Positions 548 to 16,501 of a stretch of DNA of 32,000 bases are shown here, in pieces (within the stretch, counting starts at the first letter, position 1; every line of letters starts with the position of its first letter). The stretch spans positions 60,001 to 92,000 of the forward strand of contig NC_017457.1 in NCBI RefSeq assembly GCF_000237865.1. The letters are read 5' to 3'. Source of the DNA: Haloquadratum walsbyi C23. Its GTDB lineage: Archaea > Halobacteriota > Halobacteria > Halobacteriales > Haloferacaceae. The notes below the pieces were generated by a model that worked only from the letters and a program-made list of their open reading frames with translations, was not told where the DNA came from and ran no database searches. Position numbers and translations under genes: made by a program.

Positions 548-787
548 TTATTCCTCTCCTGCTTCTTGTGCTTCGATAGTCAATTCGCCCCGTTCAGTTA
601 GTGAATAGACCTTCCGACGCCCCTCTTGTTTTCCTTTAATATACCCAGCGTCCTCCAGCTGTTGCATATGCTCATATATCGTAGGGCCTTGCTTCCCGAG
701 TTCATCTGCTAGCGCATAGCCGTGTCGTGGCTCTTCACGGAGCTTTTCGAGAATCTGGCGTTTTGCGTCTGTCAGCGTAAGTCCCAT
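548..787 (-). CDS. small winged helix-turn-helix transcription regulator (PadR-like)
   Basis: 79 aa. The pattern HGYALADELGKQGPTIYEHMQQLEDAGYIKGKQEGRRKVYSLTERGE matches the PadR/ArsR-type wHTH layout (recognition helix, then beta wing). It is divergent from the methyltransferase module. Confidence 0.75.
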   Translation of the reverse strand: MGLTLTDAKRQILEKLREEPRHGYALADELGKQGPTIYEHMQQLEDAGYIKGKQEGRRKVYSLTERGELTIEAQEAGEE

Positions 788-870
788 TCAATCTTTGATT
801 AGGATAGATAGGTAATAAGATATACATATGCAAACACCTATGCATAGATGAAATACTATTTATAATCGCA

Positions 871-1608
871 ATGGTGGAACAGACAAGTAACTCTATGTCC
901 AAAAAGACTAGTAATCAAATGTATATCGTTGATCTCAGGGAAGCAGTTTCCAGTAATCAGACGCTTAGGGAGGCACTCACTGAGTCAAATAGCCTCTGGA
1001 AGCCTCTCTATAACCGCATGGGTTCTTCAGAAACTCTTTGGATCATCGTTTCAAATGAATATCGAGGCGGGAAAATGTGGCCTGCTGCGATGGCTGCAGC
1101 TGATTACATTAGAAATCAAGCGAGTTTTATTTTGAAAAATACTATTACCGTCCATAATATTTCTGATGATAATAATGTTGCGGATATGATTTCTGCGTAC
1201 AATGAAATTCTCTTTTTTGTTAAAGACAAACGTAATTATCAGTTTCACAAAGATGAAATTCGTGTCTCACATGTGTATGAAGGAAATGAGTGGGGAGGTG
1301 AGAGAGAGAAAGGAACTAGCGCATACCATGATACTGAAGTCCGTCGGTACAACCCAGACGGGAAGGATCCTGGTAATGTGTGGCTTGAGGAAGACCGATC
1401 ACAAACCCCAAATCAAGAACTTGACGAAACCAGACCGATTCCATTTGATGAAAGTATCCGCCGATGCATTCGGGTTGGGTCGCAGGAAAAAGAAAAAATC
1501 CACACCATTTGGGCCACTAATCTAGCAGATATCATAACGTGCGAAAATCGGGAATTCATTGAAGTTGATGTCGATGTCCTCCAATCTGAGTCCGAGAGAA
1601 AATCATGA
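871..1608 (+). CDS. degenerate beta-class DNA methyltransferase paralogue lacking motif IV (D/S)PPY and motif I FxGxG
   Basis: 245 aa. It aligns by eye with the downstream methyltransferase. LWKPLYNRMGSSETLWIIVSNEY..FILKNTITVH matches VWKECYDVLREDGTMWIVVDTVM..FVSQDLVTWY. AYNEILFFVKDKRNYQF matches KKEYIVYLSKNYDHKF. GKDPGNVW matches ERPLGNLW. RPIPFDESIRRCIRVGSQEKEKIHTIWATN matches HKAPYPQALVDRMVNISTEPDDTVLDPFLGSGTT. There is no PPY tetrapeptide and no glycine-rich SAM loop. The stop overlaps the next start (ATGA at 1605-1608). Confidence 0.7.
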   Translation: MVEQTSNSMSKKTSNQMYIVDLREAVSSNQTLREALTESNSLWKPLYNRMGSSETLWIIVSNEYRGGKMWPAAMAAADYIRNQASFILKNTITVHNISDDNNVADMISAYNEILFFVKDKRNYQFHKDEIRVSHVYEGNEWGGEREKGTSAYHDTEVRRYNPDGKDPGNVWLEEDRSQTPNQELDETRPIPFDESIRRCIRVGSQEKEKIHTIWATNLADIITCENREFIEVDVDVLQSESERKS

Positions 1609-2387
1609 ATACTGTCAATTCCATTGATGCACTGAGTGTCTATTGGCAATCAAGCGAGGACATGAGTATCGTTGAGCCTGAGAGTGTTCAAACCGTCATC
1701 ACCTCTCCACCATACTGGGATCTCAAGGATTACGGGCATGAAGACCAGATTGGGACTACTGATGAATCGTATGAACACTATCATGACCGCATGAAAACTG
1801 TCTGGAAGGAGTGCTATGATGTTCTTAGAGAAGATGGGACAATGTGGATTGTTGTGGACACAGTCATGGAACGAGGTGATCTCCAGTTGCTTCCATATCA
1901 TATCATTCAGAAGGCAGAAGAAGTCGGGTTTGTGTCTCAGGATTTAGTCACTTGGTACAAGCCAACTGCTATCGCAGGGATGACAGATCGAAATATTGTG
2001 AATAAGAAAGAATATATTGTATATCTGTCTAAGAACTACGATCATAAGTTTTGTAAAAGTAATATCGAGGACACTAAAGACGACCCGGCAATCTCAGGTG
2101 AGCGTCCATTGGGGAATCTCTGGCGATTTCCGGTAAAACGTGGAACCATTGGTCAGAATTCCTTACATAAAGCACCGTATCCACAAGCGCTCGTCGACAG
2201 AATGGTTAATATTTCGACAGAGCCCGACGATACTGTCCTCGATCCATTCCTTGGAAGCGGCACGACAGCATTATCAGCGCTTGAACATAATCGTTCATGC
2301 ATTGGCTTTGAAATAAATCAAGAATTTGAGGACACTATTTCTGACCGGCTGGACTCAGTTCAGCAGAGGGACCTGACTGAATTTTAA
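1605..2387 (+). CDS. beta-class amino DNA methyltransferase (SPPY motif, N4-cytosine or N6-adenine)
   Basis: 260 aa. Motif IV (VITSPPYWDLKDYG) is near the N-terminus and motif I (VLDPFLGSGTTALSA) near the C-terminus, which is the circularly permuted beta order. HKAPYPQALVDRMV is the usual motif X region. SPPY is more typical of N4-cytosine enzymes, but this is not decisive. Confidence 0.9.
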   Translation: MNTVNSIDALSVYWQSSEDMSIVEPESVQTVITSPPYWDLKDYGHEDQIGTTDESYEHYHDRMKTVWKECYDVLREDGTMWIVVDTVMERGDLQLLPYHIIQKAEEVGFVSQDLVTWYKPTAIAGMTDRNIVNKKEYIVYLSKNYDHKFCKSNIEDTKDDPAISGERPLGNLWRFPVKRGTIGQNSLHKAPYPQALVDRMVNISTEPDDTVLDPFLGSGTTALSALEHNRSCIGFEINQEFEDTISDRLDSVQQRDLTEF

Positions 2388-2474
2388 ATCATAAATTTGT
2401 TTTCCTAACTCATTCGAATAAATTTTTCTGTTCAATACATAGACAAAATCCTACGCAAAGGTGTTTGTGGATTC

Positions 2475-3386
2475 ATGGATTATGCTCCTTCGATTGCGGT
2501 ATATCATGTGCAACGTGACGACCCTTGGACGAATTATCTCGGATTTACTGATTTAGGAACCGAAGAGCGTGAAGAAAATATTGAAGAGATCAAGTCAGTC
2601 ATCAAATCACTCGGTAACAATCACCCCGATATCTTCAATAAATACGATATTGACGCCGGAGACTATCAGCGAGAGCTAAAGGACGCTATCTTTTCACTTG
2701 GTGGTACCTTCCGTCAATCTCACGGCGCCGATAACGAAGATATTGTCCGTGATATATTTTTAAACCCAGCTAGAGAAGCTGATTATCTTAGTTTTACTGA
2801 CCAGCGAGGGAGCGAACGAATTGACTTCAAAGGCGAAGTCACCAATTCTGGACAAGTGTTTGCCATGGACGTGAAAGGAGGAGAAGGGCAGAGTATCGGA
2901 CATCTACTCGTCCCAGCGAACACTGATTCATTGATCATATGGAGTGAGCGAAATGCTAGAAATACTAAATCACCAGCCTCACGACTCAACGAGGTAATCA
3001 ATAGAACTGTCCGCTGGGGGTTGAATCAATCCGAAGATCCGCAGTTTATGATTATCCGTGATCCACCTGCTGGAGCTCGGACAGATGACGGACGGGTTAT
3101 TCCAGATGTTGTTGTTTTTCCATCGGAGTATCCATCACCGACCGCTCCTACACCAGGGATGCCTTCTCTTAGTAATATGTGCTTTCCCAATATTTTGTTT
3201 GAAGTGACAGCTGGAATTGAGAGCATGTCCTCAGAATCAGCTAAGAAGCACATCTGGTGGCATGAAATGGAATATAGGGATGAGGAGGATCAAAAGATTC
3301 ATAAGAAAATATACAACGCCGCAGATAACTCGATACGCTTGAGAACGAAGCCCATCGATTACTCAAGAATATCTAACGTAGAGTAA
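2475..3386 (+). CDS. ORFan with a PD-(D/E)xK-like motif, candidate restriction endonuclease
   Basis: 303 aa, same strand, 87 nt downstream of the methyltransferase. SERIDFKGEVTNSGQVFAMDVKGGEG gives D...(15 aa)...D-V-K spacing typical of PD-(D/E)xK nucleases. No other recognisable family motif. Confidence 0.5.
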   Translation: MDYAPSIAVYHVQRDDPWTNYLGFTDLGTEEREENIEEIKSVIKSLGNNHPDIFNKYDIDAGDYQRELKDAIFSLGGTFRQSHGADNEDIVRDIFLNPAREADYLSFTDQRGSERIDFKGEVTNSGQVFAMDVKGGEGQSIGHLLVPANTDSLIIWSERNARNTKSPASRLNEVINRTVRWGLNQSEDPQFMIIRDPPAGARTDDGRVIPDVVVFPSEYPSPTAPTPGMPSLSNMCFPNILFEVTAGIESMSSESAKKHIWWHEMEYRDEEDQKIHKKIYNAADNSIRLRTKPIDYSRISNVE

Positions 3387-5098: not shown

Positions 5099-5642
5099 AT
5101 GCTTGAGATAGTGAACATAGTCGGGTCGGGGGATATAGACCAGCGGTTAGATCTCCTCTCAGTATATACGGATGTTGAGCCACCACTAGCAAAGTACGAC
5201 CCCGAGATGTGCCACGGGATGTATCTGTTCGGTGACAACGAAGAGTCACCCTTAGTTACAATTTACACATCTGGAAAATACATAATTGTCGGTGCGGAAA
5301 GTGTAGACGAGCTTGAGGGGACAAGACAGGAAATGTTGCAAACGCTGTCTGAGTCTGATGAAATGAACGATATAGGAGACGCTCAAGTTGAAATAAGTAA
5401 TATTGTTGCGTCTTGAGATGTAGCTATGGAGCTTGACTTAGATCGAGTTTCTATCGAACTCGGGCTTGAAAATACTGAGTGCGACCCGAGAAATTTCCCC
5501 AGGGGTAGTCTACGATGATAGCAAGAACAACTGTACTGTGCTGATATTTAGAACAGGAAAGGTGACTATCACAGGTACAACTTCCCTCGTCGATATAGAA
5601 AACGCATATGAGCAGTTTTTGGAATTGCCTCCACAGCACTAA
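5099..5642 (+). pseudogene. TATA-box binding protein paralogue, disrupted (in-frame TGA plus 1-nt frameshift)
   Basis: The first TBP repeat is intact (MLEIVNIVGSGDIDQRLDL...TSGKYIIVGAESVDE...EISNIVAS). TGA follows at 5414-5416. The second repeat continues as DVAMELDLDRVSIELGLENTECDPRNFP. After an extra base near 5500-5501, the shifted frame reads GVVYDDSKNNCTVLIFRTGKVTITGTTSLVDIENAYEQFLELPPQH, ending at TAA 5640-5642. Confidence 0.8.
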
Positions 5643-5683: not shown

Positions 5684-6235
5684 TCAGACTTCACGAAGTC
5701 TATCTATCTCCTCCTGAATCTGCTGGAGAGCAGACTTTGCTTCCTCACATTCTGTCGTGCCTCCAATGATTGCCTTGTCGGTTGAAAAAATAAAAAGAGT
5801 TACTGCAAACTCTGGCGGTCGATACACAATCGCTGGGAACTGCTCTGGTTCATATTCAGTTTTCTCCAGTCCCAGAGCAATTGTCAAAGCTTCCAGATTT
5901 ACATCAACCTCTAACGTGCCGACGAAGACAGAAGTCACGTGACGAAACTCATACTCAGGCATCTTAACGCCAGCATCGGAAAGAAGCGTTCGTAACTGAG
6001 ACTCGGATTCTTCGAGATCGGCTTCAGTCTTCGCACCTCGAATCTGGAACGAGCCCATGCGGACAGGATTAATACAGGACTATCGTCCCCGCAATATATC
6101 CCCTCCTAGTCAAGTTAGTATCAATTGGAGTTTCGGCATTCTCAACCAAATCACCAACCAACAGACGAAGATCTAACCCTCACTCCAGCGACCTAATCCC
6201 ATCGCACTCGCAATCTCAAAGATACCTATTGGTGG
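5684..6235 (-). pseudogene. TATA-box binding protein paralogue, N-terminal repeat decayed by frameshifts and stops
   Basis: The 124-aa ORF (5684-6058) holds the end of repeat 1 and all of repeat 2 (GSFQIRGAKT..., LGLEKTEYEPEQFPAIVYRPPEFAVTLFIFSTDKAIIGG). Hand translation upstream on the minus strand gives broken TBP-like pieces in other frames: FEIASAMGLG from about 6220, then LDLRLLVGDLVENAE. The upper boundary is approximate. Confidence 0.65.
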
Positions 6236-6303
6236 CTCATCAGTTGATCTGGTTCTTCTGTTCGGTTACTGTTAATTCATCATAGACTACTTCAGGGGCG
6301 GAC

Positions 6304-7821
6304 ATGATTGTCTCAAACATGTCCGTGTCCTTGGACGAACTCGATTCACAACTCTTCAAATGTGCTGATATCATCCGTGATGCGGTTGATTCCACCGATT
6401 ATAAGGAGTATATCCTCCCGCTGGTCTACTATAAGGCTATCTCTGATGAGTTTGCGAAGCAGTATCAGAAGAATGTCACCGAGTACGGTGAGGAGTTTGC
6501 CCGCCGTGAGAATCTCTATGATGTTCCTGTCATCCCAGACGGATATATGTGGGATGACGTTCGAGCGGTCAGCGATAACGTGGATGAGGCACTCAACGAG
6601 AGTTTCGACGCACTCGTTGAGGCAAACCCCGAATTGAGAGGTGTTTTCCGAGCCGATTACATTGACGCCGATGCTCTCGGTGATGACCGTCTTGGACGCC
6701 TCGTAGAACATCTCTCGAAGTACGACTTAGACACGGATAGCGTTCCACCAGATATGCTCGGTGAGGCGTATATGGACTTGGTTCGCCACTTCGCAGAGGA
6801 GGAGGGCAAGTCTGGCGGGCAGTTCTTCACGCCACCACAGATTGTCAACCTCTGCGTTCGACTCGTTGATGAATTTGAGGATGGGCACACATTCCACGAT
6901 CCCACCGTTGGCTCAGGTGGAATGCTTATCGAAGCCGCTCGGTACTATCGTGAAGAGCAGAACGGCGACCCACAGAAATTCGAACTGACGGGGCAGGAAA
7001 TCAACCCTGATATCGCCGCTATCGCTAAAATGAACCTCTCCATTCACGGACTCAACGGGGAGATTGAACGAGAGGACTCACTCGCTTACCCGCAGTTTAC
7101 CGATGAGACAGATGACTCAGTTGCCCGCTTCAATAGAGTTCTCGCCAACTTTCCATTCTCCGCAGACTGGGCGAAAGACGAGCTTCAAGATGACCCCTAC
7201 GACCGTTTCGACTGGCACGAGAAACTCCCACGGGCAGATCGTGGTGACTACGCCTTCATTATGCACATCGCAAAGCAACTGAAGACACCTGAGCAGGATG
7301 GCGAGGGTGGGAAAGCGTCGATTGTGATTCCGCACGGCGTTCTCTTCCGCAAGCACGAGCAACGGTATCGTAAGCCAATGCTGGAGAACGATATGGTGGA
7401 AGCAATTGTTGGACTTCCCGAGAACCTTTTCCAGAACAACTCAATTCCATCTGCTGTGCTTGTGCTGAACACCGACAAACCAGAAGAACGAGAGGGGGAA
7501 GTACAATTCATCCACGCCGCAGATGAGGACTTCTACGACGAACTTTCCAATCAGAATCAGCTCACACATGAAGGGCTTGACCATATCATCGAAAACTTCC
7601 GAGGCTGGACAACCGAAGAGCGAGTGAGTCGAACGGTCGGAATGGATGAGATTCGAGAAAACGATTATAATCTAAATATCGCCCTGTACGTCGATACGAC
7701 CGAACCTGAGGAAGATATTGATGTTGAGGAGGAGCTGGCGAAGTTACGGGACTTACAGGCAGAACGAGACGATATTGAATCTCAAATGACTCAGCATATG
7801 GAGGCTCTGAAATATGAGTGA
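6304..7821 (+). CDS. hsdM: type I restriction-modification system, methyltransferase subunit
   Basis: 505 aa with an HsdM N-terminal region (LFKCADIIRDAVDSTDYKEYILPLVYYKAISDEF), SAM motif I (HDPTVGSGGMLIEA) and an NPPF-type motif IV variant (LANFPFS). An ATGAGTGA start/stop overlap links it to the next gene. Confidence 0.93.
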   Translation: MIVSNMSVSLDELDSQLFKCADIIRDAVDSTDYKEYILPLVYYKAISDEFAKQYQKNVTEYGEEFARRENLYDVPVIPDGYMWDDVRAVSDNVDEALNESFDALVEANPELRGVFRADYIDADALGDDRLGRLVEHLSKYDLDTDSVPPDMLGEAYMDLVRHFAEEEGKSGGQFFTPPQIVNLCVRLVDEFEDGHTFHDPTVGSGGMLIEAARYYREEQNGDPQKFELTGQEINPDIAAIAKMNLSIHGLNGEIEREDSLAYPQFTDETDDSVARFNRVLANFPFSADWAKDELQDDPYDRFDWHEKLPRADRGDYAFIMHIAKQLKTPEQDGEGGKASIVIPHGVLFRKHEQRYRKPMLENDMVEAIVGLPENLFQNNSIPSAVLVLNTDKPEEREGEVQFIHAADEDFYDELSNQNQLTHEGLDHIIENFRGWTTEERVSRTVGMDEIRENDYNLNIALYVDTTEPEEDIDVEEELAKLRDLQAERDDIESQMTQHMEALKYE

Positions 7822-9088
7822 CGACGCCGCACTGGACGAGTTTGGTGTAGGCTCAGAGGGTTCAAACAAGTCGGATACGGCTGTAAAAAGCAAGCAGAAA
7901 ACTGATGATTTACAAGCGCTGGAAGCATCACCAATTGAAGACTGGGAGTTGCTAAGGTTGGGTGATGTTCTGTCATTTGAGTATGGAGATAATCTGCCTG
8001 CGGATACACGAGAAGATGGTGAGATCCCTGTATACGGGTCTAACGGACAAGTAGATACCCACACAGAGGCAAATGTTGATACAGCAGGGATTATCATCGG
8101 GAGAAAGGGTTCTATCGGCAAAGGAGAATTCAGTATTAATCCGTTCTGGGCGATAGACACAACATATTATATAAGTGACAATGAAACAAGCGAAAATCTA
8201 CGATTCGTATATTACTTGTTACAGAATATGAAGCTTGAGAGGCTAAACGCCGCCTCAGCTATCCCTGGTCTAAATCGTAATGATGCTTATAATTTAAATA
8301 CGCTTATTCCACCGCTTTCAGAACAGCAGAAGATTGCTACCGTCCTCCGCACCGTTGACCAAGCGATTCAGAAGACTGAGGAGATCATAGAGCAAACTCG
8401 ACGAGCAAAAACAGGTATACAGCAAGAGTTGTTTACGCAAGGATACTATGACCACAGGTTTTTTGTGGAGACAAGAGTTGGCGAGTTACCAGAATCGTGG
8501 CGGTTAGAAAAAATAAAAAACCATACTGAACTTGTCTCTGGTGCTCACGTGAAATCGGAGTTAGTCTCTGATGATAGTTCTCTCACGCCGTATCTTACTG
8601 GGCCTGAAGACTTCGATGAACTTGGGTTTACAATGACCAAGTATACCGATGAGCCAACAAAATTCTGTAAAGAAGGAGACACACTTGTCACTGTCAAGGG
8701 TTCTGGGTGTGGAAAATCTACGTTCGCAGACCGACGTGCCTGTATTAGCAGACAACTCAAAGCACTACGACCGAATGGTAAACTGGAAGAACTCTACTTA
8801 TTTTACTTTGTTGAGACCAAGCAGAAACTTTTGAAAAGCCTTGCAGAGGGTTCTGCGATTCCAGGGTTGTCCAACTCCCATCTAACGGCTTTGGATATTC
8901 CGATTCCAAGTATAGAGGAGCAACGCAAAGTGGGTGAGGTCTTGAAAAAATACGACGACAGGATTGTCTATGAAAAAAAGTATAAGTCTCAACTCCAGCG
9001 TCTCAAACACGGTTTGATGCAAGACCTCCTCTCAGGCGACGTCCGAACAGCCGACGTTGATATAGAGATTCCACAGGAGGTCGCATAG
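7814..9088 (+). CDS. hsdS: type I R-M specificity subunit (first of two)
   Basis: 424 aa with two variable target-recognition regions separated by conserved helices (PPLSEQQKIATVLRTVDQAIQKTEEIIEQT and IPSIEEQRKVGEVLKKYDDRI...QLQRLKHGLMQDLLSG), the standard HsdS architecture. Confidence 0.9.
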   Translation: MSDDAALDEFGVGSEGSNKSDTAVKSKQKTDDLQALEASPIEDWELLRLGDVLSFEYGDNLPADTREDGEIPVYGSNGQVDTHTEANVDTAGIIIGRKGSIGKGEFSINPFWAIDTTYYISDNETSENLRFVYYLLQNMKLERLNAASAIPGLNRNDAYNLNTLIPPLSEQQKIATVLRTVDQAIQKTEEIIEQTRRAKTGIQQELFTQGYYDHRFFVETRVGELPESWRLEKIKNHTELVSGAHVKSELVSDDSSLTPYLTGPEDFDELGFTMTKYTDEPTKFCKEGDTLVTVKGSGCGKSTFADRRACISRQLKALRPNGKLEELYLFYFVETKQKLLKSLAEGSAIPGLSNSHLTALDIPIPSIEEQRKVGEVLKKYDDRIVYEKKYKSQLQRLKHGLMQDLLSGDVRTADVDIEIPQEVA

Positions 9089-9089
9089 T

Positions 9090-9362
9090 ATGGGTAGTGT
9101 CATATCTAAAGGCTGGGTCAATCATCTCACTATGAAGTGTTGGGAATGGACTGTAGTAGAGCGGGTAAGTCGGACAGTCAGGATGGAAGAGATCCGCGAA
9201 AACGACTACAATCTGAATATCGATTTATACGTCGATACGACCAAACCAGAGGAAGATATTGACGTACAGGAGGAACTGGCGGAACTACGCGAGTTGCAGG
9301 CAGAACGAGACGAGATTGAAGCGAAGATGACCCAGCATATGGAGGCTCTGAATTATGAGTGA
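9090..9362 (+). pseudogene. remnant of the 3' end of a second hsdM gene
   Basis: The last 71 aa of this 90-aa ORF (WTVVERVSRTVRMEEIRENDYNLNIDLYVDTTKPEEDIDV...MTQHMEALNYE) match the last 71 aa of HsdM (WTTEERVSRTVGMDEIRENDYNLNIALYVDTTEPEEDIDV...MTQHMEALKYE). By my hand count, 58 of 71 residues are identical. It carries no methyltransferase motifs. It ends in the same ATGAGTGA overlap with the following hsdS. Confidence 0.8.
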
Positions 9363-10710
9363 GGACATTACGCTGGATAAGTTCACAGAGGCTACCGCCT
9401 CTCAAGAGCGACAGGAGACACCAATAGGTGAGCTCCCAGTTGACTGGGACGTAGAGTGGTTGAAAGACGCAGTTGGGATTAATCCTGATGGTTTCTCTGA
9501 GGATGACTGGTCATCAGAGACATTTGAGTATATCTCGCTCTCAGAGGCATCTAATGGCGAAATAGAAAACAGTAAGACAATTCCTATCACGGACGCTCCA
9601 AGTCGGGCACAAAGAACAGTTCAGCAGGGTGATGTACTTGTGGGGACTGTCCGTCCAAAACAGAAAAGCCACGGGTTTGTCAGTGAGGAACACGCTGGGA
9701 AAATCTGTTCTTCTGGCTTTGGTGTCTTGCGAACTGAAACCCATTTTAACTCCCGCTATCTTCTTCAAGAAATCCTCTCAAACCGATTTTTTTCCCAGAT
9801 GGAGGCATATGTTGCAGGTTCAGGCTACCCTGCTGTCAAAATCAGTGACCTGAAGAAGCATCGAATTTCCATCCCACCTCTTGTGGAACAGAGGAAAATC
9901 GCAACCGTCCTCCACACCATCGACCAAGCGATTCAGAAGACCGAGGAAATTATCCAGGGGCTCCAAACGGCTCGTAAAGGACTTACTCAACAGTTATTGC
10001 GTTCTGGTTTTGAGGACGAAGCCAATTTAGTAAGCACCCGTTCTGGTCCTATCTCATTTGAGATCCCTTCTCATTGGAATGTTGTGACGATTGATAATAT
10101 TACTGACAATATATATCGGTATCCAACCTATCAAAATATTGATTACGTAGATGAAGGTGTTCCAGAGGTGAGAATTGGTATGTTAGACGGGGAGGGTTAT
10201 ATCGAACGAGGTGATGAAAAGTACATCTCTGAATCAACCTCAGAAGAATATCCCCGTACACAACTTGAACACGGTGATACGGTGATGGCTGTAAGGGGCG
10301 CTACGTTAGGAAAGACCGCCTCTGTTCCAGAGTGGTTAGATGGGGGCAATATTAATCCGAACCTAATTCGTATTTGCTCAAATGATGAGGTCTTAGATAG
10401 GTATCTCACGGAACTTTTCCTGAGTGGTCTGGTTCAAAGGCAAATAGAAGCTTTCTCTCAGCAAACAACGGTGAAAACAATCAAATCTGGAGACATTCGT
10501 AGAATTGCCGCCCCTATTCCGCCTGTAACTGAGCAAGAAAGAATAATGGATATACTATCTTCGTTTTCATCTCGTATTCAAAACGACGATTCGTATCTTT
10601 CCCGTCTCCAGCGTCTCAAGAGCGGTCTAATGCAAGACCTTCTCTCAGGTAAAGTCCGAACAACTAATACTAACATAGAAATTCCAGAAGAAGTCATCAC
10701 ATATGGTTAG
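9355..10710 (+). CDS. hsdS: type I R-M specificity subunit (second, different target-recognition domains)
   Basis: 451 aa. The conserved spacer helices are shared with the first HsdS (PPLVEQRKIATVLHTIDQAIQKTEEIIQG; RLQRLKSGLMQDLLSGKVRT), but both variable regions are unrelated to it. The stop overlaps the hsdR start. Confidence 0.9.
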   Translation: MSEDITLDKFTEATASQERQETPIGELPVDWDVEWLKDAVGINPDGFSEDDWSSETFEYISLSEASNGEIENSKTIPITDAPSRAQRTVQQGDVLVGTVRPKQKSHGFVSEEHAGKICSSGFGVLRTETHFNSRYLLQEILSNRFFSQMEAYVAGSGYPAVKISDLKKHRISIPPLVEQRKIATVLHTIDQAIQKTEEIIQGLQTARKGLTQQLLRSGFEDEANLVSTRSGPISFEIPSHWNVVTIDNITDNIYRYPTYQNIDYVDEGVPEVRIGMLDGEGYIERGDEKYISESTSEEYPRTQLEHGDTVMAVRGATLGKTASVPEWLDGGNINPNLIRICSNDEVLDRYLTELFLSGLVQRQIEAFSQQTTVKTIKSGDIRRIAAPIPPVTEQERIMDILSSFSSRIQNDDSYLSRLQRLKSGLMQDLLSGKVRTTNTNIEIPEEVITYG

Positions 10711-13675
10711 TATCCCATCCGAGCAGGGCGTTGAACGCTCGTATCTCTCGTGGCTTGACGGGTTAGGATGGGAAGTCCACGGACAAGATGGAAGTCGAGG
10801 AGCGAATGTCCTTGATGTAGAGTACGAACGTCGAAGCAATGAGGTTATTTACTGGAATTTACTGGCTGAACAGCTCATCGTGATCAATGACTCCCTCACA
10901 GAGGATAATGTCGAGAAGTTCGTTTCCTCGCTCAGACGTGATCTTGACGCTGAGAACTTGATGGACGGGAATGAAGCGTTCTATGAGTTACTGACCAAGG
11001 GAAAGACATTCTCAGTCAAGCAGAATGGGAGTGCCAGCAGGACGGTCTATATTGACCTGATTGACTACGAGAACCCAGAGAACAATCGCTTCCACGCTGT
11101 TAATCAGTTCTCTGTCTCCCGTGAAACGACGATCCGTCCCGACGTGAACCTCCTTGTCAACGGGATTCCGCTGGTGACGATGGAACTCAAGAGTGTCGCA
11201 CAGGACAACGACTGGCACAACGCTGTGAGCGACCTCCAAGCGTACGAAGATGATGTACCTCGACTGTTCGTCCCGACGCTATTCAACGTCGCCGCCGATA
11301 CGATGGAGTTCCGATACGGGGCAGTCGGAGCGTCCAAGGAGTTCTATGAGCCGTGGAATGATGCTCCCGAGCAGTACACAGATGACGGCGACGCAAAGCA
11401 GGCGATACAGGCACTCTGTAACCCGCAGACGATTCTCGATATTCTCAAGAACTTCGTGTTTTACGAGCGACGAGCAGGTGGGAATGCCAAAATTATTCCA
11501 CGGCATATGCAGTACTACGCTGTCAATCGGATGCTGGAGCGGGTTGACCGAGACGAACACGACCGAGGGCTCATCTGGCACACCCAAGGATCGGGCAAGT
11601 CATTCACGATGCTGTATGCGGCAGAGAATCTACTAGAGCGGGCTGTTGCTCGTAACCCGCAGGTGTTCATCATCGTCGATACGGACAAGCTGAATAGTCA
11701 AATGCGAGACCAACTGGCGAATCTCTCGCTGGGAGCGTGGACGGAAGCAGAGAGCATCGACCATCTACAGGAACTTATCGAACAGGGTCAGAGCGAGCTC
11801 ATTCTTACGACCATCCAGAAGTTCCAAGATGTTGACCCAGACAGTCAGGGGAACGACGAAGTCATCGTGATGTCCGATGAGGCTCACCGATTTATGGAAG
11901 CTGACCTTGGGAGTCGATTGGATGCCGCACTGCCAAGCTGCACTCACTTCGGCTTTACTGGTACGCCTGTCCGTGAGGGTGAACAGCACAAAGACCGCAA
12001 CACCTTCCGTGAGTTTTCACCAGAGGGCGAAGATTATATCCACCGCTATTCGGTCAAACAGGGGATTGACGACGAGCTGATTCTCCCTGTGTACTTCACG
12101 CTCCGCCACGAGATGGAGTGGCAGATTGATGAGTCGGGGCTTGATGAAGAGTTTGAACGGCAGTTCCGCGGACTGAGTTCGGATGAGAAGCGGGAACTCA
12201 TCCGTGACAACGTAACTGCGAGGATGTTGGCGGAGATTGAGCCACGAGTACAGAAAGCGGTTGAAGAAATCGACCAGCATTATGAGGAGTCTGTTTCTCC
12301 GAACAACTGGAAGGGAATGGTTGTCACCCCAAGCCGTCGGTCGGCAGCGATGTACGGTGAACGGCTCGTAGAACGGCGAGGTAAAGACGAGGTCGAGGTT
12401 CTATACACCTCGAACAAGGACGACCCAGACCTCATCCAGCAGTTCCATACGGACTCTGAGGAACGTGATTCGATAGTTAACGAGTTCAAAGACGAGGACA
12501 ATCCAAAACTATTGATTGTCCACAATATGCTTCTGACGGGATTTGACGCTCCGATTCTGAAGACGATCTATCTTGACCGTAACCTGAAGAATCATAATCT
12601 GATGCAGGCAATCGCTCGAACGAACCGCCCTGCAAGTGGGAAGGAAAATGGTGAGATTGTCGATTTCCAAGGCGTCTTTGAGAATATCGACGAGGCTCTC
12701 GATTACGATACGGAGACGCAGTCGTACGCCGCTCGTGACAAAGATGAGCTGTTTGACGACCTCGTTGACCAGTTGGAAACGGTGATAGATATTTTCGAGG
12801 GGATTCCGAAAACAGACACGCAGGAAGCCACATCGGACGCAGTTGAGCAAGTGCTGACACACCCGACTCGCCGTGAGTTCAAGCAGGGATTCCGTCGGCT
12901 TCAAGATCTGTATGAGGCGGTCGCACCTGACAGTCGACTCGTCGAGAAGGACATCGAGAGGCGGTACAAGTGGCTGAGTCGGATTCACGTTGCGTTCAGG
13001 CGGACAACTAGCGGTGAAGATGACCCTGAAGAAGATATGCGAGAGAAGACCCGAGAGATAGTCAGTGAAAACGTCGCAATTGACACTGTGAAACGAGACT
13101 TTCCAACGTACAAACTCGGTGAGGACGTCTTAGAAGAAGTGGATGAGATAGATAATCCGTCTGTGAAAGCCTCCCAAATCGCCCACGCAACCCAGGAGCA
13201 TCTCAACCCACGAGAAAACCAGAATCCTCGATATAAGCGACTTAGCGAGCGGGTGACTGATGTTGTTGAGCGATGGCAAGGTGGCGATATAGCCGACCCT
13301 GACGCAGTTGAGGCGTTACAATCAGTCGAAGAGGAGATTCTGGAGGTTGAGGAAGAAGCTGAAGAGCAGGGAATGACCGATAGTGAGTTTGCTATCTACA
13401 CGCACCTTACCGAGGAAACGCCAGAAGCAATTGAGTCAGACGAGCAGGCAGAAGCCGTCGCTAACGAGATTATTGAGCAGTTCTACGACCGTGTTGATCA
13501 CGGGTTTGCTGGGTGGCAAACGAACCAGCAGACGATTGCTGAGATTGAACGCATCTTACTGGACGTGCTTGTGGTGGAGTATGATCTTGGAGACCTGATC
13601 GATGATGAGTTTGTGGACACGGTTCGAGAGTATCTGATACAGAACCACGAAGCGACAGTTGACCACTATGAGTGA
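10703..13675 (+). CDS. hsdR: type I R-M restriction/translocase subunit
   Basis: 990 aa with an N-terminal PD-(D/E)xK nuclease (RPDVNLLVNGIPLVTMELKS), Walker A (HTQGSGKSFTM), a DEAH box (VMSDEAHR) and helicase motif VI (QAIARTNR). Confidence 0.95.
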   Translation: MVSIPSEQGVERSYLSWLDGLGWEVHGQDGSRGANVLDVEYERRSNEVIYWNLLAEQLIVINDSLTEDNVEKFVSSLRRDLDAENLMDGNEAFYELLTKGKTFSVKQNGSASRTVYIDLIDYENPENNRFHAVNQFSVSRETTIRPDVNLLVNGIPLVTMELKSVAQDNDWHNAVSDLQAYEDDVPRLFVPTLFNVAADTMEFRYGAVGASKEFYEPWNDAPEQYTDDGDAKQAIQALCNPQTILDILKNFVFYERRAGGNAKIIPRHMQYYAVNRMLERVDRDEHDRGLIWHTQGSGKSFTMLYAAENLLERAVARNPQVFIIVDTDKLNSQMRDQLANLSLGAWTEAESIDHLQELIEQGQSELILTTIQKFQDVDPDSQGNDEVIVMSDEAHRFMEADLGSRLDAALPSCTHFGFTGTPVREGEQHKDRNTFREFSPEGEDYIHRYSVKQGIDDELILPVYFTLRHEMEWQIDESGLDEEFERQFRGLSSDEKRELIRDNVTARMLAEIEPRVQKAVEEIDQHYEESVSPNNWKGMVVTPSRRSAAMYGERLVERRGKDEVEVLYTSNKDDPDLIQQFHTDSEERDSIVNEFKDEDNPKLLIVHNMLLTGFDAPILKTIYLDRNLKNHNLMQAIARTNRPASGKENGEIVDFQGVFENIDEALDYDTETQSYAARDKDELFDDLVDQLETVIDIFEGIPKTDTQEATSDAVEQVLTHPTRREFKQGFRRLQDLYEAVAPDSRLVEKDIERRYKWLSRIHVAFRRTTSGEDDPEEDMREKTREIVSENVAIDTVKRDFPTYKLGEDVLEEVDEIDNPSVKASQIAHATQEHLNPRENQNPRYKRLSERVTDVVERWQGGDIADPDAVEALQSVEEEILEVEEEAEEQGMTDSEFAIYTHLTEETPEAIESDEQAEAVANEIIEQFYDRVDHGFAGWQTNQQTIAEIERILLDVLVVEYDLGDLIDDEFVDTVREYLIQNHEATVDHYE

Positions 13676-14390
13676 GGTACGATTACACGAGCTAGAATTG
13701 CTGGGTGAGAGCGTCGAGTACGAACTACGGCGGAGTGCAGAGGCGTCAGAGCCACGGATTGACGTCGATATTCACGGGGTGAGGGTAGTCGTCCCAGAGA
13801 CTGCTGATTTTCAGCCAACAGAGCTACTGAAACAGAATGCATCGTGGGTGCTGGAGAAACAGCGAGTGTATCAGAAGTATCGTGAGGAAGCCCCTGAGCG
13901 GACGTTTGAGGCTGGCGAGAGATTTCCGTTCCTCGGAGAAGAACACAAGTTGGTGGTTGAATCTCGGCAGTCTCACGCTGTGTCAGACCGGACGATTCAT
14001 CTGCGAGAGAGCGCTGTCGCACAGTCGTCACTCAAACAAGCACTACGGAATTTCTACCGAAGTCGGGCACGCAAACACTTCGTTGATCGTGCCGACCAGT
14101 ATGCTTCTCAGATGGGTGTTGAGTATAAGCAGATTGAGATTCGGAATCAGCGGACAAGGTGGGGGAGTTGTTCAACGTCAGGAACACTCGGACTCAACTG
14201 GCGGTTGATGATGGCTTCGCCTAACGTTATCGACTACATCCTTGTCCACGAGTTAGCACATCTCCGTGAGCCGAATCACACGCAAGCGTTCTGGGATTTT
14301 GTCGCAGAGTACGATCCTGACTACGTGGAACACGCCGAATGGCTTGAGGAAAACAGTACGCAACTCATCTTTTCTCAAGCCGACCTATGA
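13668..14390 (+). CDS. DUF45/YgjP-like zinc metallopeptidase (HExxH)
   Basis: RNQRTRWGSCSTSGTLGLNWRLMMASPNVIDYILVHELAHLREPNHTQAFWDFV is the DUF45 signature with an HELAH zinc motif. The track starts at a TTG (13659). I prefer ATG 13668, which forms an ATGAGTGA overlap with the hsdR stop. Confidence 0.85.
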   Translation: MSEVRLHELELLGESVEYELRRSAEASEPRIDVDIHGVRVVVPETADFQPTELLKQNASWVLEKQRVYQKYREEAPERTFEAGERFPFLGEEHKLVVESRQSHAVSDRTIHLRESAVAQSSLKQALRNFYRSRARKHFVDRADQYASQMGVEYKQIEIRNQRTRWGSCSTSGTLGLNWRLMMASPNVIDYILVHELAHLREPNHTQAFWDFVAEYDPDYVEHAEWLEENSTQLIFSQADL

Positions 14391-15122: not shown

Positions 15123-16199
15123 TCAAATATCATCATTTTCTCTGATAGAGATTTCGACACCACAGGCTTCTGCCATCCGCCCCAGTTCACGTTGTTTCTG
15201 ATCCCAGCTTAAGTTGACTTCAAGATAGTATTCCTGTTCTAGTTCACGTGCTTGCTTCATCTCCTTGTCGTTGTATGTTGGTTCGTCATTGACGATAGCA
15301 CGATTCTTCGCAGGGATGTATGGGAGTGGCTCAATCGCAGAGATAAGGTCGTGATTTTGGATGAGGTAGTTCACTATCGACGCCATCAGGTCGCTCTGGA
15401 CAGAATCTGTAAAGGTCTCAGCGACATCACCACTCTGAGAGATTTCGCCAGAATATGGCTGTGTTATCCTGTCCTCAGAGTCAGTTGATGAATCTTCATT
15501 ATCCAATCGACGTGGAGTGTCCGTATCAATCTCGGACTCGATATCGTTGACGAGCCTGTCAATCATCTCTTTCGCTTGCGTTTGTGCTTCCGATTCGATA
15601 GCGTCAGAAACGGTGTCAGTGAGCAAATCCACAACCGCTGTGGCTAATTCTTCTTTGTCATCTGTCAGCGTATCCCGAGATTTTCGTAACTTCCTGATGT
15701 GTTCGATAATCGCTATTGATTCTTCATTGTGTATCGTGCTAACTTGATACGCCTCAATGATACCCTTCTTGTCTGGAAGTTTCCGAAGTGTCGTCCGTTC
15801 AACCGCCTCGACTTTGAATTGTGAATCACTGTCACCGAGATATCGGTAGTAGAACTCATACTCCTGTCCGTTGGTGAGAATACCCAATCTGACATTCTCA
15901 CTCTGGAGATATGCACTCAGTTGCTCTCGATGCTTGGAGGTGAGCGTTTTACCCAGTCCCTTTGCTTCGAGAAATGCCACGGGTTGTCCGCCGAGTATAA
16001 GAGCATAATCGACTTTGAATGTTTTACTGAATGCCTTCACCGAGTACTCTAGTTCGGTGTTAGCTGGGATCTCCCAGCCAAGAAGTTCGATGAAATCGTT
16101 TAGTATAGACGCTTTCGTAGTTGCTTCCTGCATCTGCGGTGAATCCTCGATGATGGGTTGAGCAGACTCAACGTAGTCCCGAATCGATGCTGTGTCCAT
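15123..16199 (-). CDS. orphan HsdR_N/Mrr-like PD-(D/E)xK domain protein with acidic coiled middle and unknown C-terminal domain
   Basis: ILNDFIELLGWEIPANTELEYSV...FKVDYALILGGQPVAFLEAKGLGKTL...REQLSAYLQSENVRLGILTNGQEYEFYY matches the N-terminal nuclease-like domain of type I HsdR (D...EAK core, then the TNG..Y.F strand). It has no helicase motifs. The track starts at 16271; I prefer the internal ATG at 16199 (MDTASIRDY). Confidence 0.7.
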   Translation of the reverse strand: MDTASIRDYVESAQPIIEDSPQMQEATTKASILNDFIELLGWEIPANTELEYSVKAFSKTFKVDYALILGGQPVAFLEAKGLGKTLTSKHREQLSAYLQSENVRLGILTNGQEYEFYYRYLGDSDSQFKVEAVERTTLRKLPDKKGIIEAYQVSTIHNEESIAIIEHIRKLRKSRDTLTDDKEELATAVVDLLTDTVSDAIESEAQTQAKEMIDRLVNDIESEIDTDTPRRLDNEDSSTDSEDRITQPYSGEISQSGDVAETFTDSVQSDLMASIVNYLIQNHDLISAIEPLPYIPAKNRAIVNDEPTYNDKEMKQARELEQEYYLEVNLSWDQKQRELGRMAEACGVEISIRENDDI

Positions 16200-16501
16200 T
16201 CTTACAAGTGATCTTCTCTCGTGTGATTCAAAGAAATGTGGGCAAAGACTCAGTAACCCTCCATTCGTCATTGGTCTCCTTGTCTGTAGTTACTCGTACT
16301 GACGCTCTTACTTCGTCTACGTGGGCGGTAGCTCACTCGCAGAACCTGTTTATTTCGCCCTGAGGTGATGTCAGTTCAGGGCGGAGGACTAGTTACCAAT
16401 GGGCTTCCACGGTGGTGGTATCACTTCGGTGATTCTTAAAATGATGATAAATATCGTCGACTCTTCTTGTAGATGAAAAAATCCTAATACAGACAAGAAT
16501 T

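Follow-up and report, generated by a model that had tools for sequence, protein, structure and literature searches.

In amino-methyltransferases of the beta class, the order of the motifs has been argued to force dimerization, with the recognition part of one subunit facing the active site of the other (PMC7544214). CcrM and the Mod subunit of EcoP15I are cited for such a division of labour within a dimer, and heterodimers are listed only for eukaryotes (PMC7544214). In the latter, METTL3-METTL14 and MTA1-MTA9, an active beta-class subunit is accompanied by a catalytically eroded paralogue, on which substrate binding depends (PMC7544214). Here we describe a likewise composed pair of open reading frames (ORFs), ORF245 and ORF260, from Haloquadratum walsbyi C23; the window, to which all coordinates refer, is the whole analysed stretch of 32,000 nucleotides (nt; NC_017457.1, positions 60,001 to 92,000). 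The pair most likely belongs to a four-gene Type II restriction-modification module of plasmid PL100, together with the putative endonuclease gene ORF303 and a divergently transcribed gene for a PadR-family regulator. Our best explanation, which we hold to be probable, is that ORF245 and ORF260 constitute a split methyltransferase of two paralogous subunits, which would have arisen by duplication and subfunctionalisation of an obligate beta-class homodimer.

Homodimeric beta-class enzymes, namely CcrM, EcoP15I Mod, M.RsrI, M.MboIIA, TTHA0409 and M.BceJIV, share the PF01555 family and the motif order with ORF260, and the arrangement in CcrM and EcoP15I Mod, where one subunit recognises DNA and the other methylates (PMC7544214), is the split of jobs proposed here. 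However, CcrM-type dimers consist of two identical, fully equipped subunits, whereas here the roles would fall to two paralogues or two domains, each missing the other's part. The eukaryotic pairs belong to the MT-A70 clade, have a dead partner with a degenerate motif IV (EPPL) and require extra RNA- or DNA-binding subunits; the window pair, in contrast, is prokaryotic, lies in a restriction-modification module, has wholly lost motif IV and motif I in its dead member and evolved independently. Neither ORF245 nor ORF260 matches the MT-A70 family of Pfam, even at E<=1, and in the fold search METTL3 is no more than a remote match (E ~1e-5), ranking far behind the beta-class enzymes of bacteria. 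The likeness to METTL3-METTL14 and MTA1-MTA9 is one of functional analogy, not of membership in MT-A70.

The principle itself is already known from METTL3-METTL14, MTA1-MTA9 and RNA enzymes such as RsmC. In Trm6-Trm61 the methyltransferase fold is duplicated, and one copy, which does not bind S-adenosylmethionine (SAM), has a substrate-binding role. RsmC is described as a tandem-duplicated methyltransferase fold of which one copy has lost SAM binding and turned to substrate binding (PMC1934991). Both belong to another methyltransferase class, act on RNA and have no defence role. To our knowledge, neither exists as both a split and a fused form in two domains of life. A literature search retrieved no description of a dead beta-class paralogue in prokaryotic restriction-modification, an absence that is not proof, and the curators of REBASE may know these proteins.

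All three frames of the module that lie on the plus strand were confirmed: ORF245 at 871-1608 (245 amino acids, aa), ORF260 at 1605-2387 (260 aa) and ORF303 at 2475-3386 (303 aa). ORF260 starts inside the stop codon of ORF245 (ATGA, 1605-1608), as noted in an earlier reading of this DNA from its sequence (the original prediction). ORF260 is an active-looking beta-class amino-methyltransferase, which matches positions 1-219 of the 221 positions of PF01555 (E=2.4e-48). Its motif IV, SPPY (residues 34-37, nt 1704-1715), is invariant in 13 orthologues, its motif I, LDPFLGSGTT, is encoded at nt 2238-2267, and its orthologues are 63-71% identical. ORF245 matches the same family (N6_N4_Mtase) at E=6.3e-9, with 36.5 bits at a gathering threshold of 26.7, over profile positions 17-183 only, and the ends of PF01555 that carry motif IV and motif I are missing from the match. 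At the N-terminus of ORF245 MYIVDL stands in place of VITSPPY, and at the motif I position IHTIWATNLADI of ORF245 faces VLDPFLGSGTTAL of ORF260. ORF245 is confirmed by these alignments as a genuine beta-class methyltransferase homologue without motif IV or motif I and, because both motifs are lost, is predicted to be able neither to bind SAM nor to catalyse.

The same losses were found throughout the family. A tetrapeptide of the form (D/N/S/H)PP(Y/F/W/H) occurs in none of 18 dead orthologues from genome and metagenome loci and in none of 33 further metagenomic ones; the observation that ORF245 has no (D/S)PPY thus extends to 51 orthologues. No SAM-binding motif I (DPFxGSGTT) was found in the 33 metagenomic dead proteins, and no catalytic or SAM motif is hidden by the alignment. 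Directly compared, ORF245 and ORF260 are barely similar (BLASTP E=0.004 over 29 aa). The block-for-block correspondence claimed for them holds at the profile level, where hhalign aligns the two families over 156 columns (ORF245 31-211, ORF260 53-212; probability 93%, E=3.4e-7) and stops where IHTIW of ORF245 faces VLDPF of ORF260. The Rossmann-like methyltransferase fold expected for the 245-aa protein is indicated by the PF01555 match and by the predicted secondary-structure order in a fused orthologue, which mirrors that of the active domain. A profile search of PDB sequences with the ORF245 family gave nothing significant. Conservation of the family in both archaea and bacteria sets the observation well beyond chance. 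ORF245 has at least 150 homologues (47-80% identity) in many haloarchaeal genera, and a hidden Markov model (HMM) search of 1.84 billion representative proteins yielded 118 relatives, 62 of them at E<=1e-10, which either stand alone (about 205-240 aa) or form the N-terminal part of proteins of about 450-550 aa.

The part of ORF245 that is best conserved lies in the middle of the protein. This segment (K120-W171, nt 1228-1383) has the consensus F-x-KD-x-IR-x-x-H-[VI]-[YW]-x-x-x-EWG-x-R...YN-x-x-GKDPGNVW, with K127, D128, R131, H134, E140, W141, R145, Y160, K165, D166, N169 and W171 invariant. The matching segment of ORF260 (143-168), at the position of target recognition, is short and poorly conserved. 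The excess of ORF245 over its partner here, put at about 30 aa in the original prediction, is 20-27 aa (K120-L172, 53 aa, against K143-P168, 26 aa). In the stand-alone haloarchaeal families, invariant columns make up 53% of the middle segment of ORF245 versus 14% of its core, and 15% of the middle of ORF260 versus 45-47% elsewhere. Among 100 fusions of the two proteins, the share of columns conserved at >=90% is 49% in the middle segment of the dead domain and 3% in its core, 33-39% in the catalytic and SAM parts of the active domain and 0% at the matching middle position. In 33 metagenomic pairs the GKDPGNVW-type motif is present in every dead protein and in no active one, and SPPY in every active protein and in no dead one; motif I was recognised in 32 of the 33 active proteins. 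The segment retained by ORF245 is probably DNA-binding.

Enzymes that have both halves also exist. The segment kept by the dead half and missing from the active half, F-x-KD-x-IR...EWG-x-R...GKDPGNVW, has its counterpart in the single-domain proteins P0384 (276 aa), P0348 and P0444, which combine SPPYWN.K.Y and DPFLGSGTT with F-x-KD-R-IR...KDWGGR...NPKGKDPGNVW. In BLASTP, ORF245 matches P0384 at E=1e-25 and ORF260 matches it at E=2e-57, both far better than the match of ORF245 to ORF260, and in the alignment of ORF260 with P0384 the middle segment is a gap. P0348 has no dead neighbour. The pattern of dead, active and complete proteins is as would be expected if a complete, presumably homodimeric enzyme had been duplicated and each copy had lost a different half.

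Single ORFs of 504 and 499 aa that join the dead and active parts by an acidic linker are found in two haloarchaeal loci, L011 of Halomicrococcus and L012 of Haloarcula rara, respectively. A search with a fusion found fused clusters in haloarchaea (eight) and in bacteria (about 95, with proteins of about 445 aa), the latter matching at 30-35% identity over 79-96% of the query and including proteins of Herbinix hemicellulosilytica and Ruminococcus. Of five fused proteins scanned with Pfam, the four with two domains show two PF01555 stretches each, and P0250, with three domains, shows three. Such fused proteins are, by the Rosetta-stone argument, evidence for a physical partnership of the dead and active halves. 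The AlphaFold2 model of the Halomicrococcus fusion P0241, built with 100 fused sequences, has a predicted template modelling score (pTM) of 0.85 and a mean predicted local distance difference test score (pLDDT) of 79.2, and the secondary-structure order of its N-terminal, dead domain is predicted to repeat that of the active domain. For a chain of two domains this pTM is high, which suggests that the domains are fixed relative to each other. Model confidence is low in two stretches, residues 119-137, which make up the conserved insert of the dead domain, and residues 397-433, the corresponding region of the active domain, as would be typical of loops that become ordered on DNA. A fold search with the fusion model gave single-domain-long matches (about 240-310 aligned columns, bacterial beta-class enzymes) and was uninformative on the dead domain and the interface. 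The nearest solved relatives, searched via the fused homologues P0263 and P0241, are TTHA0409, N4CMT, M.BceJIV, CcrM, M.RsrI and M.MboIIA. SPPY is more typical of N4-cytosine enzymes, and these nearest structures are a mix of N4-cytosine and N6-adenine enzymes. Among the bacterial proteins there are also triple-domain ones (P0250, P0252 and P0255, 715-736 aa), in which an active methyltransferase, the dead domain and an active methyltransferase follow one another, the whole two-methyltransferase set of the HNH-type systems described below in one chain.

Where the two halves are separate, they are neighbours. An active PF01555 methyltransferase adjoins every stand-alone dead paralogue with enough flanking sequence (63 of 63 loci), with overlapping stop and start codons or near abutment in 60 of them; in L022 the gap is about 60 nt. 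The pair is kept in all 12 intact genome loci, in all five distant loci and in all 48 metagenomic stand-alone cases with room for a partner. The genome set comprised 14 loci, drawn from at least nine genera of haloarchaea. The order of a PadR gene on the minus strand, the dead gene, the active gene and ORF303 is kept in ten of them, two of which are cut by contig ends; in two further loci the nuclease gene is upstream on the opposite strand, and the remaining two are a degraded remnant and a marginal 24-residue match on a bacterial (Actinomycetota) contig. The remnant (L013, Halobiforma nitratireducens contig_116, 5687-6587) retains no more of the nuclease than its 50 C-terminal residues, its PadR gene is broken and its dead paralogue carries a frameshift; the same genome carries an intact copy of the module (L010). 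In all ten unfused genome loci the junction overlaps or abuts (ATGA, TGATG, TAATG or TAGATG).

Beyond the haloarchaeal genomes, each of five distant metagenomic stand-alone relatives has a methyltransferase of the ORF260 subfamily directly downstream (A3 HMM E=1e-91 to 1e-100), mostly with an overlap of 1-4 nt. Two of these five loci have 73-76% guanine plus cytosine (GC) and non-acidic proteins and are clearly not haloarchaeal; the taxonomy of the distant stand-alone dead proteins was judged only from GC content and amino-acid composition. A metagenome scan added 80 loci: in 50 the dead gene stands alone, 22 encode fusions and 8 encode motif-complete enzymes. An ORF260-type methyltransferase lies directly downstream of 45 of the 50 dead genes; two others are at a contig edge, and the other three, copies of one locus, have a complete methyltransferase directly upstream. 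In 33 non-redundant metagenomic pairs the junction measures from -17 to +2 nt. Moreover, the pairwise identities of the dead proteins follow those of their active partners closely (r=0.96 over 153 pairs).

Taken together, these observations suggest the following scheme. An ancestral homodimeric enzyme, resembling the motif-complete P0384, would have been duplicated, and each copy would have lost the part of the work kept by the other. ORF260 would have retained SPPY and motif I and lost most of the middle segment at the target-recognition position, and ORF245 would have retained the middle segment and lost motif IV and motif I. The two proteins would now form an obligate pseudo-homodimer with one DNA-holding face, contributed in trans by ORF245, and one active site, that of ORF260; translational coupling via ATGA would hold the subunit ratio near 1:1, and in other lineages the two halves would have been joined in a single chain. 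ORF303 would be the cognate nuclease, probably of the PD-(D/E)xK type, and the divergent PadR-type regulator would bind a 14-bp palindrome before the pair and before the nuclease gene, in a role like that of C-proteins.

Several points weigh against this scheme. Beta-class enzymes as small as about 260 aa can function with no partner of this kind, so that ORF260 alone might be active. Between systems with unrelated nucleases and so, probably, with different targets, the conserved segment of the dead subunit is nearly unchanged, which rules it out as the main determinant of specificity. Rather than being alone responsible for specificity, it more likely serves as a general element of DNA contact or of the interface, and the residues that read the sequence are probably in variable parts of either protein. 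The proposal of a dead-partner arrangement inside a restriction-modification module is upheld by the comparative evidence, with every refuting condition that was checked turning out in its favour; a role of the dead paralogue as the main specificity subunit, which is one form of the roles suggested for it, is not. The order and content of one metagenomic locus seen in three samples (L092-L094, e.g., L094 3231-4596), where a motif-complete methyltransferase with its own middle segment is followed by a dead paralogue of 184 aa, do not fit a simple complementary loss; this locus may represent an early stage after duplication. Structurally, only the pTM of the fused homologue hints that the dead and active parts are held in a fixed arrangement, and the nuclease call for ORF303 is drawn from weak fold matches (E ~0.02), a motif and the gene context. 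Finally, plasmid PL100 is easily lost in culture (PMC3119063), which, with both operators of the window being off the consensus, would leave the activity of the system in C23 open to doubt.

The role of ORF245 can be explained in other ways. It could be a non-catalytic regulator, assembly factor or inhibitor of ORF260, which delays or tunes methylation or stabilises the enzyme in high salt and has no DNA role. Adjacency, coupling and fusion would suit any tight protein-protein partnership, and a segment that is near-invariant across systems with different nucleases would suit an interface as well as a DNA role. However, in beta-class enzymes the position of the retained segment is that of target recognition and DNA contact, invariant Lys, Arg, His, Trp and Tyr are abundant in it, and it is the very segment that the partner has lost; nor would the permanent fusion of an inhibitor to its target be expected in about 100 lineages. 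We regard this explanation as unlikely.

A further alternative places ORF245 with the nuclease, as a DNA-recognition or bridging subunit of ORF303, and its assessment depends on the nuclease and its distribution. ORF303, which had been taken for an ORFan, has at least 139 homologous clusters, mostly of about 292 aa, one of them named "Restriction endonuclease" in UniRef. The family shares invariant E88, E114-R-I-D117 and D132-x-K134-GGEGQS in 30 homologues. The spacing of the acidic residue and DVK seen earlier is confirmed as D117 (nt 2823-2825), 14 residues, and D132-V-K134 (nt 2868-2876). The AlphaFold2 model (pLDDT 78.6, pTM 0.74) has an alpha-beta-beta-beta-alpha-beta core around the invariant residues. 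Its Foldseek matches in the PDB are weak (best E=0.018, probability 0.91, TM-scores up to about 0.4), and those ranked at the top are mostly PD-(D/E)xK nucleases, namely RecU/PrfA, Hjc, YaeQ, FokI, MunI, AvaII and HindIII. No match for ORF303 was found in Pfam, NCBIfam, PADLOC or the PDB sequences. The best reading of the motif, the weak fold matches and the gene context is a Type IIP-like endonuclease with a predicted PD-(D/E)xK-type core. As in Type II systems, the methyltransferase ORF260 and the ORF303 homologues are separate, co-located and co-inherited genes.

The ORF303 family adjoins the pair in all haloarchaeal-type loci with room for it and in L024. Elsewhere the pair is accompanied by a DUF4928 protein, by two proteins of unknown type (591 and 693 aa) or by a small HNH protein, and next to the bacterial fusions there are an HNH protein of 680-743 aa and a second, complete methyltransferase of 271-274 aa. 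The latter layout is exactly that of Type IIS systems in which an HNH nuclease is combined with two methyltransferases; in the module of the window, by contrast, a single methyltransferase is active and the nuclease is PD-(D/E)xK-like and about 292 aa long, features that suggest a palindromic target. The expected co-conservation was therefore found for the gene pair, and the tie to the 303-aa ORF gives way to other partners outside the haloarchaeal-type loci and L024. In the Halomicrococcus locus (L011, 3813-5761, minus strand), two tandem ORF303 paralogues, 60% and 35% identical to ORF303, precede the fused methyltransferase, which hints at a heterodimeric nuclease in this lineage.

In Type III systems the Mod dimer gives recognition for Res, and an analogous service of ORF245 to ORF303 would accord with the three genes travelling together in all haloarchaeal-type loci and with the EcoP15I structure (PDB 4zcf) being among the fold matches. 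Yet the dead gene always adjoins, is coupled or is fused to the methyltransferase, whereas the nuclease differs by lineage (ORF303-type, HNH, DUF4928 or unknown) or sits on the opposite strand; in L011 and L012 the two halves are joined in one protein and the nuclease gene is transcribed divergently. Because the nuclease partner varies while the pair stays, the dead paralogue is, on the evidence of gene neighbourhood, to be placed with the methyltransferase and not with the nuclease, and we consider a nuclease subunit very improbable.

Still less credible is an ORF245 that remains active with unorthodox motifs and modifies a second strand or site. It is a true PF01555 homologue, and an L/V-x-G-S-G string is present in five of 18 orthologues, but the place of this string in the alignment is at "ISTEP", before strand beta-1, rather than at motif I; a motif IV-like tetrapeptide is found in 0 of the 51 orthologues checked, and the C-terminal region of the dead family after beta-1 has only 5% invariant columns. 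Bacterial systems that need second-strand modification carry a separate complete methyltransferase of 271-279 aa. Finally, that ORF245 is a functionless, decaying remnant of a duplicated gene, as the lack of both functional motifs and the clearly degraded Halobiforma copy might suggest, is refuted by conservation and can be dismissed: 46 columns are invariant among 29 family representatives from many genera, the bacterial and archaeal relatives keep the same conserved residues, and frames are intact and the coupled junction is conserved in more than 60 loci.

The split methyltransferase of two paralogous subunits remains our preferred reading, and its possible extent is considerable, since the dead and active pair, separate or fused, is widespread in archaea and bacteria. 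We lean, with less assurance than for the window pair itself, to the view that it represents a widespread, unrecognised class of Type II methyltransferases in both domains, in which the active subunit would be inactive alone and a pseudoenzyme would supply the DNA-contact module in trans, in split or fused form, as an independent prokaryotic counterpart of METTL3-METTL14 and MTA1-MTA9. The pair offers a test of the beta-class dimer model, which rests on a few homodimer crystal structures and on the eukaryotic heterodimers. With the roles split onto two genes, rejoined elsewhere, and complete enzymes extant, it would make a simple prokaryotic system, of just two proteins, in which subunits can be mixed, mutated and exchanged; if this view of the class is right, it would confirm the division-of-labour model as an experiment of nature. 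Should part of the specificity reside in a separable subunit, methylation specificity could also be engineered on the pair as a scaffold. For annotation, the dead genes are routinely labelled "DNA methyltransferase" though they are predicted to be unable to methylate; such mislabelling would affect the assignment of methylomes to genes and the counts of orphan methyltransferases in haloarchaea and gut Firmicutes.

The regulatory part of the module consists of the PadR gene and two candidate operators. The regulator is a winged-helix protein of 79 aa encoded on the minus strand at 548-787 (Pfam PadR E=2.1e-11), divergently from the methyltransferase pair. A PadR homologue is found at the same divergent position in L001-L010 (59-79% identity), L022 and L024 and, where the contig allows, in the haloarchaeal-type metagenome loci L030-L046; L013 has only fragments. 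A 14-bp perfect palindrome, ACCTATGCATAGGT, is conserved before the methyltransferase pair in 11 of the 11 intergenic regions compared, and in the window it is represented by Operator 1, ACCTATGCATAGAT (836-849), one mismatch away, in the divergent promoter region. Upstream of the nuclease gene a copy with 0-4 mismatches is recognisable in nine of 12 regions examined: it is perfect in L009, has two mismatches in L002, L003, L004, L008 and L010 and 3-4 in L001 and L005. The window copy, Operator 2 (TCCTACGCAAAGGT, 2449-2462), just upstream of the nuclease gene, has three mismatches, is not significant alone within the window and is followed by the conserved element GTGGATTCAT; a GCGGATTyAT element follows the second palindrome copy in L001-L005 and L008-L010. 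Neither copy was found in L011 or L012, both of which are without a PadR gene. Scans for sigma-70 promoters and terminators are uninformative for an archaeon.

To judge from these patterns, the PadR protein and the paired palindromes look like a controller circuit for the module. The C-protein Type II systems (of the PvuII, BamHI and Esp1396I type) likewise have a small module-encoded regulator and palindromic operators at the regulated promoters. However, the C-proteins are Xre-type helix-turn-helix proteins, whereas the regulator here is a divergently transcribed winged-helix protein of the PadR family, for which operator binding is predicted. A PadR-type regulator with paired operators would make an archaeal controller circuit for restriction-modification that is apparently undescribed. 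The palindrome, which contains ATGCAT, was also considered as the system's own target and rejected, because its central hexamer is not constant (ATGCGT and ATGTAT also occur) and loci without the regulator lack the motif.

The starts of two of the genes should probably be moved downstream, to judge from homologue lengths and, for ORF303, from the position of ATG 2475 within a conserved non-coding element. The probable start of ORF245 is ATG 919 (M17, MYIVDL), which gives a protein of 229 aa, and that of ORF303 is GTG 2508 (V12), which gives 292 aa. The 16 codons before the conserved MY(I/L)VDL start (871-918) are conserved at the DNA level (..CAGTCAAGT..) in L001-L010, even where there is no start codon, and this stretch may be a regulatory or leader element rather than coding.

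The window as a whole is rich in defence genes; in addition to the module at 548-3386 it contains a Type I system, TATA-binding protein (TBP)-like ORFs, a Cdc6 gene and an SNF2 helicase. A megablast search of the plasmid collection gave no match for the region, and the dead family is absent from the viral contigs scanned. The Type I restriction-modification system that adjoins the module is complete (hsdM 6304-7821, hsdR 10703-13675), and its operon has two specificity genes (7814-9088 and 9355-10710), two hsdS per operon being unusual; a YgjP-like metallopeptidase gene (13659-14390) comes after hsdR. The easy loss of PL100 is surprising for a plasmid with two restriction-modification systems, if either caused post-segregational killing. 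Between the module and the Type I operon there are three short TBP-like ORFs with one TBP repeat each (5099-5416 and 5466-5642 on the plus strand, 5684-6058 on the minus strand; Pfam TBP E=2e-13 and 2e-15), of which the first two look like one TBP gene split in two, and in locus L026 a TBP gene is directly upstream of the dead and active pair. Finally, an ORF of 382 aa (15123-16271, minus strand) weakly resembles the nuclease domain at the N-terminus of Type I R subunits as well as the N-terminal domain of MmeI, and may encode a further stand-alone restriction-type nuclease.

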